Below are positions 23,050-52,121 of a DNA stretch of 64,000 nucleotides, in pieces. A model generated the notes under the pieces. It saw only the letters and a list, made by a program, of their open reading frames with translations. It ran no database searches and had not been told where the DNA came from. The DNA is from Escherichia coli (GTDB lineage: Bacteria; Pseudomonadota; Gammaproteobacteria; Enterobacterales; Enterobacteriaceae). Numbering within the stretch: position 1 is the first letter of the stretch; each line of letters opens with the position of its first letter. The DNA lies in assembly GCF_003334785.1 (NCBI RefSeq), contig NZ_QOWV01000005.1; one strand, 5' to 3'. The translations under genes were made by a program, and so were the position numbers.

Positions 23050-23170
23050 TAAATAATTCGAGTTGCAGGAAGGCGACAAGAGAGTGAATCCCCAGGAGCT
23101 TACATAAGTAAGTGACTGGGGTGAGCGAACGCAGACGCAGCACATGCAACTTGAAGTATGACGAGTATAA
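23050..23170. repeat. ERIC (enterobacterial repetitive intergenic consensus / IRU) element in the pgk-fbaA intergenic region
   Basis: Core gtgaatccccaggagcttacat + aagtaagtgactggggtgagcg matches the reverse complement of ERIC1R followed by ERIC2 (primer sequences from memory); outer boundaries approximate. Confidence 0.85.
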
Positions 23171-24336: not shown

Positions 24337-24450
24337 ATTGCCTGATGCGCTACGCTTATCAGGCCTACACGTATCCTGCAATATATTGAATTTGCAGGTT
24401 TTTGTAGGCCGGATAAGGCGTTCACGCCGCATCCGGCATGACAAAGCGCA
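24337..24450. repeat. REP/BIME pair in the fbaA-mscS intergenic region
   Basis: gcctgatgcgctacgcttatcaggcctac and gtaggccggataaggcgttcacgccgcatccggca. Confidence 0.8.
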
Positions 24451-30457: not shown

Positions 30458-31453
30458 TTAATCAAAATATTGCGTCTGGATAAATTCACTGAGCTGCCGC
30501 AGGCCGGTGCGCGGTGAGAGCGTATTGTTTTTGACCGCTAAAAGCGTCTGGCGGTAATAGCGATCGAAATCTTCATTCGCGAACAGGTGATTCAGTACTT
30601 CTTCTTCGGTCTGCTTACGCAGCCATTCCACCGATTGTTGTTGCCGCACTTGTTGTAAACGACCACTGGCAGTTAGCGCGGTTTTGAAGTCGATGATGGC
30701 GTGCCAGATCTCATCGATTCCACGTTTTTCCAGTGCGCTACAAGTCAGAACCCGTGGCTGCCATTCGTCGTATTTACGTCGCAGAATATGCAGGGCACTC
30801 TCGTACATATGCCGGGCAATGGCGACATTGGTATGGTTATCGCCATCGTCTTTGTTGATAACGATCAGATCAGCCACTTCCATCAGCCCTTTTTTAATGC
30901 CCTGCAGATCATCGCCGCCACCGGCAATTTGCAACGAGATAAAACAGTCCACCATGCGGGCGACTTCTGTTTCCGACTGCCCGACGCCAACCGTTTCGAC
31001 AATCACTACGTCATAACCCGCTGCTTCGCATAACAGCATTAATTCCCGCGCTCGCTGACTGGCACCGCCCAGATGACCGGAGGATGGTACCGGGCGAATA
31101 AACGCCGCTTCGGCACGCGCCAGGTCATTCATGCGGGTTTTATCCCCGAGAATGCTACCGCCAGTGACCGGGCTGCTGGGATCGACCGCAATAACCGCGA
31201 CCTTTAATCCCTCTCGAATCAACAACATGCCAAAGGCCTCAAGAAAGGTACTTTTCCCCGCGCCGGGGGTGCCGGTAACGCCCAGTCGCAGGGTGTTACC
31301 GCAGTACGGCATAATGGCATCAAGCAGCTGCGTACTTAGTGCCTGATGACGCGGGTGACGGCTTTCCACCAGCGTCATGGCCTGGGCGAGTGTGGCACGC
31401 TCACCCTGACGTAAGCGGCGAATACTTTCTGCCAGCGTGGCTTCATTAATCAT
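30458..31453 (-). CDS. argK: MeaB/ArgK-type G-protein chaperone for methylmalonyl-CoA mutase
   Basis: 331-aa ORF with P-loop GTPGAGKST; overlaps the scpA 3' end by 8 nt. Confidence 0.93.
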
Positions 31454-45398: not shown

Positions 45399-48272
45399 AT
45401 GACACAGACGTTAAGCCAGCTTGAAAACAGCGGCGCTTTTATTGAACGCCATATCGGACCGGACGCCGCGCAACAGCAAGAAATGCTGAATGCCGTTGGT
45501 GCACAATCGTTAAACGCGCTGACCGGCCAGATTGTGCCGAAAGATATTCAACTTGCGACACCACCGCAGGTTGGCGCACCGGCGACCGAATACGCCGCAC
45601 TGGCAGAACTCAAGGCTATTGCCAGTCGCAATAAACGCTTCACGTCTTACATCGGCATGGGTTACACCGCCGTGCAGCTACCGCCGGTTATCCTGCGTAA
45701 CATGCTGGAAAATCCGGGCTGGTATACCGCGTACACTCCGTATCAACCTGAAGTCTCCCAGGGCCGCCTTGAAGCACTGCTCAACTTCCAGCAGGTAACG
45801 CTGGATTTGACTGGACTGGATATGGCCTCTGCTTCTCTTCTGGACGAGGCCACCGCTGCCGCCGAAGCAATGGCGATGGCGAAACGCGTCAGCAAACTGA
45901 AAAATGCCAACCGCTTCTTCGTGGCTTCCGATGTGCATCCGCAAACGCTGGATGTGGTCCGTACTCGTGCCGAAACCTTTGGTTTTGAAGTGATTGTCGA
46001 TGACGCGCAAAAAGTGCTCGACCATCAGGACGTCTTCGGCGTGCTGTTACAGCAGGTAGGCACTACCGGTGAAATTCACGACTACACTGCGCTTATTAGC
46101 GAACTGAAATCACGCAAAATTGTGGTCAGCGTTGCCGCCGATATTATGGCGCTGGTGCTGTTAACTGCGCCGGGTAAACAGGGCGCGGATATTGTTTTTG
46201 GTTCGGCGCAACGCTTCGGCGTGCCGATGGGCTACGGTGGCCCACACGCGGCATTCTTTGCGGCGAAAGATGAATACAAACGCTCAATGCCGGGCCGTAT
46301 TATCGGTGTATCGAAAGATGCAGCTGGCAATACCGCGCTGCGCATGGCGATGCAGACTCGCGAGCAACATATCCGCCGTGAGAAAGCGAACTCCAACATT
46401 TGTACTTCCCAGGTACTGCTGGCAAACATCGCCAGCCTGTATGCCGTTTATCACGGCCCGGTTGGCCTGAAACGTATCGCTAACCGCATTCACCGTCTGA
46501 CCGATATCCTGGCGGCGGGCCTGCAACAAAAAGGTCTGAAACTGCGCCATGCGCACTATTTCGACACCTTGTGTGTGGAAGTGGCCGACAAAGCGGGCGT
46601 ACTGACGCGTGCCGAAGCGGCTGAAATCAACCTGCGTAGCGATATTCTGAACGCGGTTGGGATCACCCTTGATGAAACAACCACGCGTGAAAACGTAATG
46701 CAGCTTTTCAACGTGCTGCTGGGCGATAACCACGGCCTGGACATCGACACGCTGGACAAAGACGTGGCTCACGACAGCCGCTCTATCCAGCCTGCGATGC
46801 TGCGCGACGACGAAATCCTCACCCATCCGGTGTTTAATCGCTACCACAGCGAAACCGAAATGATGCGCTATATGCACTCGCTGGAGCGTAAAGATCTGGC
46901 GCTGAATCAGGCGATGATCCCGCTGGGTTCCTGCACCATGAAACTGAACGCCGCCGCCGAGATGATCCCAATCACCTGGCCGGAATTTGCCGAACTGCAC
47001 CCGTTCTGCCCGCCGGAGCAGGCCGAAGGTTATCAGCAGATGATTGCGCAGCTGGCTGACTGGCTGGTGAAACTGACCGGTTACGACGCCGTTTGTATGC
47101 AGCCGAACTCTGGCGCACAGGGCGAATACGCGGGCCTGCTGGCGATTCGTCATTATCATGAAAGCCGCAACGAAGGGCATCGCGATATCTGCCTGATCCC
47201 GGCTTCTGCGCACGGAACTAACCCCGCTTCTGCACATATGGCAGGAATGCAGGTGGTGGTTGTGGCGTGTGATAAAAACGGCAACATCGATCTGACTGAT
47301 CTGCGCGCGAAAGCGGAACAGGCGGGCGATAACCTCTCCTGTATCATGGTGACTTATCCTTCTACCCACGGCGTGTATGAAGAAACGATCCGTGAAGTGT
47401 GTGAAGTCGTGCATCAGTTCGGCGGTCAGGTTTACCTTGATGGCGCGAACATGAACGCCCAGGTTGGCATCACCTCGCCGGGCTTTATTGGTGCGGACGT
47501 TTCACACCTTAACCTACATAAAACTTTCTGCATTCCGCACGGCGGTGGTGGTCCGGGTATGGGACCGATCGGCGTGAAAGCGCATTTGGCACCGTTTGTA
47601 CCGGGTCATAGCGTGGTGCAAATCGAAGGCATGTTAACCCGTCAGGGCGCGGTTTCTGCGGCACCGTTCGGTAGCGCCTCTATCCTGCCAATCAGCTGGA
47701 TGTACATCCGCATGATGGGCGCAGAAGGGCTGAAAAAAGCAAGCCAGGTGGCAATCCTCAACGCCAACTATATTGCCAGCCGCCTGCAGGATGCCTTCCC
47801 GGTGCTGTATACCGGTCGCGACGGTCGCGTGGCGCACGAATGTATTCTCGATATTCGCCCGCTGAAAGAAGAAACCGGCATCAGCGAGCTGGATATTGCC
47901 AAGCGCCTGATCGACTACGGTTTCCACGCGCCGACGATGTCGTTCCCGGTGGCGGGTACGCTGATGGTTGAACCGACTGAATCTGAAAGCAAAGTGGAAC
48001 TGGATCGCTTTATCGACGCGATGCTGGCTATCCGCGCAGAAATTGACCAGGTGAAAGCCGGTGTCTGGCCGCTGGAAGATAACCCGCTGGTGAACGCGCC
48101 GCACATTCAGAGCGAACTGGTCGCCGAGTGGGCGCATCCGTACAGCCGTGAAGTTGCGGTATTCCCGGCAGGTGTGGCAGACAAATACTGGCCGACAGTG
48201 AAACGTCTGGATGATGTTTACGGCGACCGTAACCTGTTCTGCTCCTGCGTACCGATTAGCGAATACCAGTAA
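45399..48272 (+). CDS. gcvP: Glycine dehydrogenase (decarboxylating), glycine cleavage P protein
   Basis: 957-aa [44 protein letters not shown]... recognised. Confidence 0.97.
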
Positions 48273-48294
48273 TTCACTGATTCGACTATTTTCT

Positions 48295-48316
48295 AAAGGC
48301 GCTTCGGCGCCTTTTT
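48295..48316 (+). terminator. Rho-independent terminator of the gcvTHP operon
   Basis: aaaggcgcttcggcgccttttt. Confidence 0.8.
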
Positions 48317-48344
48317 AGTCAGATGACAAAGTACAAAAGTGCTC

Positions 48345-48470
48345 AGACAGTCCCCTCGCCCCTTTGGGGAGAGGGTTAGGGTGAGGGGAACAGGCCGGCA
48401 CTGGCGCGAATATTTACCCTCACCCCGGCCCTCTCCCTGAAAGGGCGAGGGGGAAAAGCGTGCCAACATT
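48345..48470. repeat. Large GC-rich imperfect palindrome downstream of gcvP (related in motif to the element at 45290..45365)
   Basis: Left arm cccctcgcccctttggggagagggttagggtgaggg, right arm ccctcaccccggccctctccctgaaagggcgaggggg. Confidence 0.55.
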
Positions 48471-48538
48471 GAAGATTGAGCCAGTTTGTTAGCAATCTCA
48501 AAGATACGTCAACGAATTAATTTTTCTCGGAAAAACAA

Positions 48539-49282
48539 ATGGCTATAGCACTTGTGACTGGTGGCAGTCGCGGCATCGGGCGGGCAACTGCATTACTGTT
48601 GGCGCAAGAAGGGTATACGGTGGCGGTTAATTATCAGCAAAACCTCCACGCGGCGCAGGAAGTGATGAACTTAATAACGCAAGCCGGTGGCAAAGCATTC
48701 GTGCTCCAGGCGGATATCAGCGACGAAAACCAGGTCGTTGCGATGTTTACAGCAATCGATCAGCACGATGAACCGCTAGCAGCGCTGGTCAATAACGCCG
48801 GGATCTTGTTTACCCAGTGCACCGTTGAAAACCTTACCGCAGAGCGAATCAACCGAGTACTTTCCACCAACGTGACGGGATATTTTCTCTGCTGCCGCGA
48901 GGCGGTAAAACGCATGGCGCTTAAAAATGGTGGCAGTGGCGGCGCTATCGTCAATGTCTCTTCGGTGGCCTCACGGTTGGGTTCGCCAGGGGAATATGTT
49001 GATTACGCGGCATCGAAAGGGGCGATTGATACGTTAACCACCGGACTATCGCTGGAAGTCGCCGCGCAGGGGATCCGCGTTAACTGCGTGCGGCCAGGGT
49101 TTATTTATACCGAAATGCACGCCAGCGGCGGCGAGCCTGGACGCGTCGATCGCGTTAAGTCGAACATCCCCATGCAGCGTGGTGGACAGGCAGAAGAGGT
49201 CGCGCAGGCCATTGTCTGGCTACTAAGTGATAAAGCCTCTTACGTCACGGGAAGTTTTATCGATTTGGCGGGCGGGAAATAA
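48539..49282 (+). CDS. ygfF: Short-chain dehydrogenase/reductase (SDR) of unknown substrate
   Basis: 247-aa ORF with N-terminal TGGSRGIGRA Rossmann motif. Confidence 0.9.
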   Translation: MAIALVTGGSRGIGRATALLLAQEGYTVAVNYQQNLHAAQEVMNLITQAGGKAFVLQADISDENQVVAMFTAIDQHDEPLAALVNNAGILFTQCTVENLTAERINRVLSTNVTGYFLCCREAVKRMALKNGGSGGAIVNVSSVASRLGSPGEYVDYAASKGAIDTLTTGLSLEVAAQGIRVNCVRPGFIYTEMHASGGEPGRVDRVKSNIPMQRGGQAEEVAQAIVWLLSDKASYVTGSFIDLAGGK

Positions 49283-49338
49283 AACAGGGAAGTTGTCTGA
49301 CCGGATGCAACAAGTATTGCATCCGGTACTTCATCGAC

Positions 49339-51962: not shown

Positions 51963-52121
51963 TTGTAGGCCTGATAAGACGCGCCAGCGTCGCATCAGGC
52001 ATCGGAGCACAACTGCCGGATTCGGCGTGAACGCCTTATCCGATCTACGGGCCTCGTCCCTGTTGTGATAAAGGCATCAAATCCCAGACATGATAAGACG
52101 CGCCAGCGTCGCATCAGGCGA
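51963..52121. repeat. REP/BIME cluster (three REP units) between yqfA and ygfZ
   Basis: gtaggcctgataagacgcgccagcgtcgcatcaggc, ccggattcggcgtgaacgccttatccgatctac and tgataagacgcgccagcgtcgcatcaggcg. Confidence 0.85.

Follow-up and report, generated by a model that had tools for sequence, protein, structure and literature searches.

The gcvP-ygfF intergenic region

The element described here lies in the E. coli region gcvT-gcvH-gcvP, ygfF and bglA, within the window, the whole 64,000-nt stretch of DNA that was analysed. Wherever the two were compared, the window matches K-12 MG1655 at 100% identity. Both gcvP and ygfF are encoded on the + strand, and the element is located between the end of the operon and this next gene. 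The intrinsic terminator of the gcvTHP operon was read directly in the sequence and has a stem of GGCGC (48298-48302) and GCGCC (48307-48311), a TTCG loop, and a T-run at 48312-48316. The repeat begins immediately 3' of this terminator, and 87 nt separate it from the ATG of ygfF further downstream. Promoter and terminator scans of 48200-48650 returned no sites and also missed the obvious gcvP terminator, possibly because A/T pairs that flank its stem consume part of the T-run. RefSeq annotates no feature at the element, either in the window or in NC_000913.3. Two ORFs, one of 58 amino acids (48293-48469, - strand) and one of 41 amino acids, overlap the palindrome, and their mechanical presence is what a small protein-coding gene would have in its favor. 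The ORFs of the fepB, alx, and hrpB copies differ in frame, strand, and length, so that no frame is shared, and RefSeq annotates neither of the two. The chance that either is a gene is negligible, and the ORFs are best seen as a by-product of GC-rich repeat DNA.

A repeat search placed the arms of the inverted repeat at 48352-48390 and 48414-48452 (39 nt each, 82% complementary, 23 nt apart). G and C make up 62% of 48340-48475 and 67% of 48352-48452, compared to 37% of the remaining gcvP-ygfF intergenic DNA and 52% of the whole window. The first-pass annotation had described a GC-rich imperfect palindrome after the gcvP terminator, far more GC-rich than its surroundings and with two arms of about 36 nt. 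The position, size, and character of the palindrome are borne out, and the arms it referred to are the 36-nt units at 48353-48388 (+) and 48416-48451 (-). Folding the 136-nt span as RNA, a check proposed in that annotation, gave -78.2 kcal/mol for the + strand (z = -6.93; matched by 0 of 200 shuffles) and -75.5 kcal/mol for the - strand (z = -6.11; equalled by no shuffle). The DNA fold of the 187-nt span 48319-48505 gave -42.1 kcal/mol (z = -5.1). An intrinsic terminator was considered and rejected, as no T-run follows the stem on either strand and the scan was negative.

The firm extent of the element is approximately 48340-48465, close to the 48340-48475 given in the first-pass annotation. 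An element of approximately 186 nt, drawn by homology with the fepB copy, was also rejected. The 50-nt right flank is 54-62% identical to that of the other K-12 pairs, which is not above shuffles, and the 34-nt left flank is 68-74% identical to those of the fepB, alx, and hrpB copies, a borderline value against a shuffle mean of 53-57% and a maximum of 74%. The core was limited to the shorter span because the right flank is at chance level and the left flank is borderline. The first base of the left flank is also the left breakpoint of the variable segment that contains ygfF. The coordinates of all features are collected in Table A.

Table A. Features of the gcvP-ygfF region, in window coordinates
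Feature	Position	Strand	Details
gcvP stop	48272	+	
gcvTHP operon intrinsic terminator	48295-48316	+	AAAGGCGC-TTCG-GCGCCTTT and T-run
Variable segment	48319-49338		1020 nt; BoxC pair, ygfF, and its 3' region; in ~56% of complete E. coli genomes
Left outer flank	48319-48352	+	TCAGATGACAAAGTACAAAAGTGCTCAGACAGTC; weak similarity to the same flank in other K-12 pairs
Arm A, BoxC/PIT/TMECO unit #11, type A 'mm'	48353-48388	+	exact match to published Table 1, #11 (PMC4666352)
Arm A, C1 block	48353-48361	+	CCCTCGCCC, then loop CTTTG
Arm A, G1 block	48367-48375	+	GGGAGAGGG, then loop TTA
Arm A, G2 block	48379-48387	+	GGGTGAGGG, then G
Inter-arm spacer	48389-48415		AACAGGCCGGCACTGGCGCGAATATTT; conserved in the K-12 pairs fepB-entC and alx-sstT
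Arm B, BoxC/PIT/TMECO unit #10, type B 'mm'	48416-48451	-	exact match to published Table 1, #10 (PMC4666352)
Arm B, C1 block	48451-48443	-	then loop TTTCA
Arm B, G1 block	48437-48429	-	then loop CCG
Arm B, G2 block	48425-48417	-	then T
Right outer flank	48452-48464	+	GGAAAAGCGTGCC; by-eye likeness to other pairs, chance level beyond it
ygfF	48539-49282	+	ATG at 48539

Identity of the palindrome

String identity to the published catalogue makes it essentially certain that the palindrome is the BoxC/PIT/TMECO inverted pair #10/#11 of the K-12 gcvP-ygfF intergenic region. The name TMECO and the catalogue come from Holder et al. 2015 (Nucleic Acids Res 43:10126; PMC4666352), where the BoxC unit consensus is given as CCCTCNCCC-N3-6-GGGNGAGGG-N3-GGGNGAGGG. 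This consensus has two exact matches at the element, 48353-48387 (+) and 48417-48451 (-), with none elsewhere in the 64 kb and 0 in 100 shuffles. Each 36-nt unit consists of one C-rich 9-mer and two G-rich 9-mers, and the doublet is a convergent inverted one in which the 3' ends of the units face each other. Among the 23 MG1655 units of Table 1 in PMC4666352, arm B is string-identical to #10 (3,045,989-3,046,024, type B mm) and arm A to #11 (3,046,087-3,046,052, type A mm). Supplementary Table S2 of that paper places #10/#11 between ygfF (b2902) and gcvP (b2903), and the NC_000913.3 coordinates 3,045,989-3,046,087 fall between these two genes. In all five K-12 inverted pairs, one unit is of type A, with TTA as its second loop, and the other of type B, with CCG (PMC4666352); at that position arm A here has TTA and arm B has CCG. 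The match to the published BoxC/PIT/TMECO pair is complete, with nothing essential different.

The family has several names. The TMECO motif is the one 'earlier described as BoxC' (Bergler 1992), which was found again as PIT (potential intrastrand triplex) elements (Hoyne and Maher 2000; Hoyne et al. 2000) before it received the TMECO name (PMC4666352). E. coli BoxC also appears, as a known family with a size of 56 bp and 32 copies, in an independent survey (PMC2267715). The K-12 copies give good alignments and include the unit upstream of fabI (= envM). BoxC was reportedly first described in the envM sequencing paper, and Bachellier et al. 1999 is a further reference for it. The feature is already known, down to the exact locus and its polymorphism. 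For annotation, the correct name is BoxC/PIT/TMECO inverted pair, and not terminator, riboswitch, sRNA, or small gene. BoxC is a repeat family without demonstrated function, and the gcvP-ygfF copy by itself adds nothing new to that picture. Taken as a whole, the reading that this is the BoxC #10/#11 pair, a neutral or selfish structure-prone repeat without a dedicated role, is very probable.

Other repeat families were compared with the element and rejected. The first-pass annotation had held that the palindrome is not a REP unit, and the REP search agrees. The GCCKGATGCGRCG-type REP/BIME consensus, with up to two mismatches, has 32 matches in the window and none within 48319-48505. The nearest REP-like match (48569-48581, two mismatches) lies inside ygfF, and a search with the long-REP consensus found no match in the element. 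The same annotation had suggested membership of a dispersed family such as boxC/RIP, of which the boxC half stands on the consensus and the Table 1 identity (PMC4666352), and the element proved neither unique in the genome nor absent from the published repeat families. The RIP half fell, as the element contains no REP and no IHF consensus; WATCAANNNNTTR occurs in the window only at 30460 and 39954, with none near the element. A RIP is a REP/BIME cluster (a BIME subclass) with an IHF site. The conserved central inverted repeat of ERIC/IRU elements is GTGAATCCCCAGGAGCTTACATAAGTAAGTGACTGGGGTGAGCG. An exact match elsewhere in the window validated this core as a query, and with up to three mismatches it was found in the window only at 23084-23127, a genuine ERIC copy, and not at the element. 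In a search around the site with a permissive E-value, the best Rfam hits were eukaryotic microRNA-precursor models at 31-34 bits against gathering thresholds of 77-97, which is generic long-hairpin noise.

The BoxC pair nevertheless shares features with these families. Like REP, BIME, and REPIN sequences, BoxC consists of short GC-rich intergenic palindromes, single or in inverted doublets that give a long hairpin, and like REP/BIME it is dispersed, varies in copy number between strains, and is often found just after operon ends. The sequences are unrelated, however, and the BoxC C/G/G three-block unit has a triplex potential that REPs lack. REPINs are REP doublets that form hairpins and are mobilized by RAYT transposases. 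ERIC/IRU elements resemble the BoxC pair in being imperfect intergenic palindromes of approximately 125 nt that are present in some strains and absent from others. BoxC would differ from ERIC and other enterobacterial MITE-like repeats in that neither defined terminal repeats nor a consistent target duplication was seen at the loci compared.

Structure potential of the units

The two arms were compared with the criteria for a class II purine-motif intrastrand triplex (C:G1 Watson-Crick pairing, G2 antiparallel, and G.G-C, A.A-T, or T.A-T triads). In both arms, 8 of the 9 C-block positions can form Watson-Crick pairs with G1 (the exception is the published 'mm' mismatch), and with G2 placed antiparallel on G1 all 9 triads are of an allowed purine-motif kind. 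The register of the blocks would permit a purine-motif intrastrand triplex, which is a potential of the sequence. A G-T wobble makes the C block of 'mm' units complementary to G2 as well, and arm A alone prefers that pairing in the DNA fold. Because the C block also pairs with G2, alternative hairpins would be available to each unit besides the long inter-arm hairpin. Together, the two inverted units can, as modeled, form a hairpin of approximately 100 nt, or a cruciform in duplex DNA. The arms resemble H-DNA and G-quadruplex motifs, which are known as sources of genetic instability, in their purine-rich, mirror-compatible blocks (9/9 triads, G3N3 x4 per arm). Classical H-DNA forms in supercoiled duplex, whereas the triplex proposed for BoxC forms within one strand and requires single-stranded DNA.

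Published assays bear on which of these forms matters. By CD and NMR, oligonucleotides of each of the four TMECO types, A mm and B mm among them, form triplexes with Tm values of 70-82 °C, and NMR favored the triplex over a quadruplex for the full unit (PMC4666352). Addition of the complementary strand converted the oligonucleotide to duplex, an NMR experiment described specifically only for type B mm, and DMS footprinting in vivo gave no support for a stable triplex (PMC4666352). As summarized in the same paper, PIT elements block DNA polymerase in vitro and have no effect on conjugation, and Hoyne and Maher 2002 are quoted for PIT elements acting neither as promoters nor as terminators and leaving RNA polymerase unaffected (PMC4666352). 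The triplex thus belongs to in vitro conditions, and the form that matters may instead be the hairpin or cruciform.

Family members in E. coli

Counting copies by BLASTN had been proposed in the first-pass annotation, and the count shows a dispersed family. The 126-nt core matched 83,752 places, spread over 5409 of the 5426 complete E. coli genomes. A genome has a median of 17 such places (range 1-31), K-12 records have 21, and B2 strains carry very few (also PMC4666352). The 14 published MG1655 loci that were retrieved (19 of the 23 units) are all intergenic, and TMECO copies show no bias in orientation or in position relative to genes (PMC4666352). In K-12, the pairs at gcvP-ygfF, fepB-entC, alx-sstT, and hrpB-mrcB are convergent, the type A unit coming first and the type B unit after it in inverted orientation, and the lldD-trmL pair is divergent.

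The gcvP-ygfF, fepB-entC, and alx-sstT pairs also have a spacer in common, AACAGGCCRGCAYYGGYGCGAAHAWTWA. It is 27-29 nt long and 79-83% identical between pairs, compared to a shuffle maximum of 69%, and its first ~14 nt recur after several of the single type-A units. The unit, these ~14 nt, and a short 5' (C)GGTC/CAGTC flank together roughly explain the classical 56-bp size of BoxC. In one account of origin, what replicates is the doublet, as a non-autonomous MITE- or REPIN-like element that some enzyme would mobilize in trans; the gcvP-ygfF copy would have arrived by insertion, and the single units would be decayed halves. Arms and spacer shared by three K-12 doublets above every shuffle, single type-A units that bear the start of the spacer, and a copy number that depends strongly on lineage, from 1 to 31 per genome with very few in B2, are all consistent with this origin. 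The outer flanks are not significantly conserved, however, and give the element no defined ends. A mobile origin of this kind is fairly unlikely, and as an account of origin it is compatible with the preferred reading of a neutral or selfish structure-prone repeat rather than exclusive of it.

Strain variation at gcvP-ygfF and other BoxC loci

A 501-nt query (48150-48650) was covered over at least 80% of its length in 3026 of 5426 genomes. In the sampled rows from the remaining genomes the match stops at 48316-48318, and approximately 44% of E. coli genomes are without the BoxC pair together with ygfF. O157:H7, ST131, and strain C21 have bglA directly after gcvP. In the alignment, 119 nt with a REP stand in place of 48319-49338 (breakpoint 48318/48319), and homology past the replaced segment resumes at, or a few nucleotides from, the bglA stop codon. 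A goat isolate keeps ygfF and has REPs where the BoxC pair would be, along with a second copy of the terminator hairpin. Since approximately 44% of genomes are without the pair and one strain has ygfF with REPs in its place, the element is dispensable; neither gcvTHP nor ygfF needs it. The roughly even split found here agrees with Table S3 of PMC4666352, which for TMECO 10/11 lists 28 strains as 'no change' and 28 as 'region missing'. That the missing region is the whole BoxC and ygfF segment, swapped for 119 nt that bear a REP, is a small addition to that paper.

The same strains bear on a role at the RNA level. Some REP elements have been shown to act in this way. Either read-through from gcvTHP or the 5' leader of ygfF could carry the hairpin as a 3'-exonuclease barrier, a back-up terminator, or a translational or processing signal. 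The predicted -78 kcal/mol hairpin is on the + strand, which is the sense strand for both gcvP and ygfF, the element stands between the operon end and the next gene on the same strand, and the scan found no promoter-like site between the element and the ygfF ATG, so ygfF transcripts might begin upstream and contain the element. Against this, the element is downstream of a strong intrinsic terminator and has no T-run on either strand, one strain has ygfF minus the element, and 44% of genomes have gcvP minus the element. The published data argue in the same direction, as copies are unbiased in orientation and position relative to genes and PIT elements are reported to be devoid of terminator and promoter activity (PMC4666352). 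An RNA-level role is accordingly improbable, and a neutral or selfish repeat remains the favored reading.

Other BoxC loci vary in different ways. At fepB-entC, ST131 has a clean 186-nt absence; the K-12 insert is bounded by TAA...TAA, and ST131 has a single TAA. Internal deletions at alx-sstT and hrpB-mrcB leave a short hairpin. These deletions match the published 'palindrome effect'. The intergenic DNA is wholly replaced at alx-sstT in B strains and at adk-hemH. A search for target duplications at 'empty' sites (B2, O157, and other strains) gave one suggestive 3-nt TAA, at fepB-entC, which is too little for a claim of mobility. No clean empty site with target duplication was seen at hrpB-mrcB, adk-hemH, or alx-sstT, and gcvP-ygfF is a replacement.

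An origin by insertion of the doublet draws support from the exact 186-nt absence at fepB-entC and from the left edge of the gcvP-ygfF copy, which coincides with the 48318/48319 breakpoint. It is weakened by a possible target duplication at only one of three examined empty sites, where 3 nt is weak, by boundaries that are not clean at hrpB-mrcB and adk-hemH, and by alternative haplotypes at gcvP-ygfF that are replacements rather than empty sites.

Distribution beyond E. coli chromosomes

The convergent pair pattern was scanned in one genome per species, which gave at least 120 loci (125 doublets). Among the matches listed, the isolates include Pseudomonas, Sphingomonas, Bradyrhizobium, Azospirillum, Methylibium, Ramlibacter, and Sulfuricella, and the MAGs include ones labeled Acidobacteriota, Planctomycetota, Chloroflexota, and Clostridium. 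The published survey counted 3610 units in 262 proteobacterial genomes, and Enterobacter asburiae LF7a is given there as a genome with over 100 copies (PMC4666352). The C block, which is outside the search pattern, has at most one mismatch in 227 of 250 units among the matches listed, and the loops and spacers are lineage-specific. The invariance of the blocks is partly forced by the search pattern, in which only C1 and the first 4 nt of G1 were free. A mirror or direct comparison of G2 with G1 across taxa, meant to tell triplex constraint from plain repetition, is without power, given a dominant G1 that is mirror-symmetric and positions that are mostly fixed by the pattern. Near-invariant 9-mers in very distant bacteria sit badly with purely neutral DNA and suggest either constraint (protein or structure) or active spread.

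Constraint of this type could mean that the G-rich blocks are the recognition site of a DNA- or RNA-binding protein, or a G-quadruplex, and serve as a cis element in, for example, nucleoid organization or replication pausing. Among the matches listed, GGGAGAGGG / GGGTGAGGG and the C block are near-invariant in Alpha-, Beta-, and Gammaproteobacteria and in MAGs of other phyla while the loops vary, and each arm is a canonical G3N3G3N3G3N3G3 quadruplex-type motif, the only two in the 64 kb. We know of no protein that binds the BoxC blocks. The invariance is in part imposed by the search pattern, the NMR data argued for triplex over quadruplex (PMC4666352), close to half of E. coli lack the element at this locus, and B2 strains carry almost none. 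A protein or quadruplex site is very improbable, and the structure-prone repeat without a dedicated role is again preferred.

Among 368 plasmid records with matches, a few are genuine E. coli plasmids that carry 70-76% of the composite, whereas Holder et al. found no copies on plasmids (PMC4666352). The phage collection contained essentially none (three records, two of them Campylobacter phage entries). Clustering of the 1906 ORFs within 1.5 kb of the 125 doublets yielded only ABC ATPases and LysR regulators, both abundant housekeeping families, and spurious repeat ORFs, with no recurrent transposase or RAYT-like gene, a comparison of low power where one locus per genome is expected. Copies on some real E. 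coli plasmids and a doublet that is multicopy in many distant genomes fit mobilization in trans; the absence of a transposase-like gene recurring beside the 120 loci goes against it, within the same low power. It is doubtful that the convergent A+B doublet with its spacer, and not the 36-nt unit, is the replicating entity across Proteobacteria and possibly beyond. If it were, the left end of the gcvP-ygfF copy would define the junction of ygfF presence and absence, and the 30-year 'no known function' puzzle of BoxC would become a tractable problem of transposition.

Proposed origin of the variability at gcvP-ygfF

The preferred explanation is that the element encodes nothing and would not be needed for gcvTHP termination or for the presence of ygfF, and that it would persist in intergenic DNA as a neutral or selfish structure-prone repeat. 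A hairpin or triplex, formed while the DNA is transiently single-stranded for replication, would promote slippage, deletion, or replacement. The gcvP-ygfF site would be a hotspot of variation between strains because the repeat favors these events. This mechanism, together with the absence of a dedicated function at the locus, is somewhat favored by the evidence. We infer the absence of function from the dispensability of the element and the published negative assays. Excess variability at TMECO loci has been reported (PMC4666352). The association of the repeat with variability is a correlation, and variable spots may simply accumulate repeats, as REPs have done in the alternative haplotypes here. 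The gcvP-ygfF copy is a convenient natural test case, with approximately half of E. coli carrying the pair and ygfF and approximately half carrying neither. The spacer common to three K-12 pairs and the same paired architecture in distant bacterial groups are additions to the published description of BoxC.

BoxC pairs and the ygfF segment among E. coli haplotypes

The gene ygfF is variably present among E. coli genomes. In about 44% of the complete ones, O157:H7, ST131, and C21 (L015, L016, and L018) among them, a 119-nt stretch with a REP occupies the place of window 48319-49338, which begins at the first base past the gcvP terminator and ends at the bglA stop codon. A third haplotype at gcvP-ygfF was found in a goat isolate (NZ_CP074749.1; L017, 1110-1380). 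This genome retains ygfF, and its gcvP-ygfF spacer contains REP-type palindromes and no BoxC pair. The gcvP terminator hairpin is duplicated, with the second copy immediately 5' of ygfF, and a GATGACAAAGTGC-like motif flanks both sides as inverted copies.

The BoxC pair at fepB-entC is a clean 186-nt presence/absence difference, present in K-12 (L004) and absent from ST131 (L019). The insert sits between the two genes, which are divergent in K-12. It is bordered by TAA...TAA, and ST131 has a single TAA. The repeated triplet could have arisen by target duplication of 3 nt, or it may simply be microhomology.

BoxC sequences on plasmids, in phage records, and in other bacteria

The motif was not found on plasmids by Holder et al. 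(PMC4666352). In contrast, our search detected the BoxC composite on E. coli plasmids of 113-354 kb; NZ_MG591698.1 (H234), H235, and NZ_CP110860.1 (H237) match 70-76% of it at 85-86% identity. Several further plasmid matches are megabase-sized records and are probably chromosomes or chromids. The Campylobacter phages A18a and A11a (H256 and H257), both unannotated 174-kb records, have three matching places each that cover the type-A arm plus its left flank at 86% identity. Such matches would not be expected in phages of Campylobacter, and contamination or misassembly may account for them.

Among the matches listed in the genome contig scan (L025-L144), the full convergent doublet, in the order C block, G1, G2, spacer, and inverted unit, is present in alpha-, beta-, and gammaproteobacterial isolates and is often multicopy within one genome. 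One Rhodoferax metagenome-assembled genome (MAG) has about 20 copies among these matches, with a constant pattern span of 65 nt. The listed matches also include MAGs assigned to Acidobacteriota (L038), Planctomycetota (L085 and L107-108), and Chloroflexota (L115 and L117), and a Clostridium-labelled MAG (L040) has three tandem-spaced copies. The non-proteobacterial occurrences could be binning errors.

Hairpin alternatives and a degenerate palindrome in gcvTHP

The G of the C block (CCCTCGCCC) in 'mm' units is mismatched to G1 and forms a G-T wobble with G2 (GGGTGAGGG), and the predicted DNA fold of an isolated unit therefore joins the C block to G2. This was the pairing obtained for isolated arm A (window 48353-48388). 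The triplex model assumes a C block hairpin with G1, and the modeled C block-G2 hairpin of arm A is an alternative to it.

A 2-mismatch block search identified a degenerate BoxC-like palindrome in the gcvH-gcvP intergenic region, with the layout CCTCTTC-tgcg-GGAGAGG-atc-AGGGTGAGG-aaaatttatg-CCTCACCCT-ca-CTCTCTTC-gtaa-GGAGAGAG. Three adjacent hairpins are predicted (DNA fold -18 kcal/mol, z = -4.3). It differs from the canonical BoxC pair in being single-copy and universal, found once in 5426/5426 E. coli genomes at an identity of at least 95%. Its position within the gcvTHP operon indicates that it is transcribed.

Other repeat families in the window

The ERIC/IRU site matches the family's central consensus exactly, so it is a genuine ERIC element, and it lies in an intergenic region other than that of the BoxC pair. 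The units of the REP/BIME clusters are exact or near-exact and arranged as inverted pairs. The REP consensus has 32 matches in the window compared to about 9 expected.

Positions of the additional repeat features in the window
Feature	Window position	Location	Description
Degenerate BoxC-like palindrome	45287-45362	gcvH-gcvP intergenic region	
ERIC/IRU	23084-23127	intergenic	
REP/BIME clusters	391-474, 6503-6515, 11604-11729, 24408-24437, 51969-52119		GCCKGATGCGRCG units
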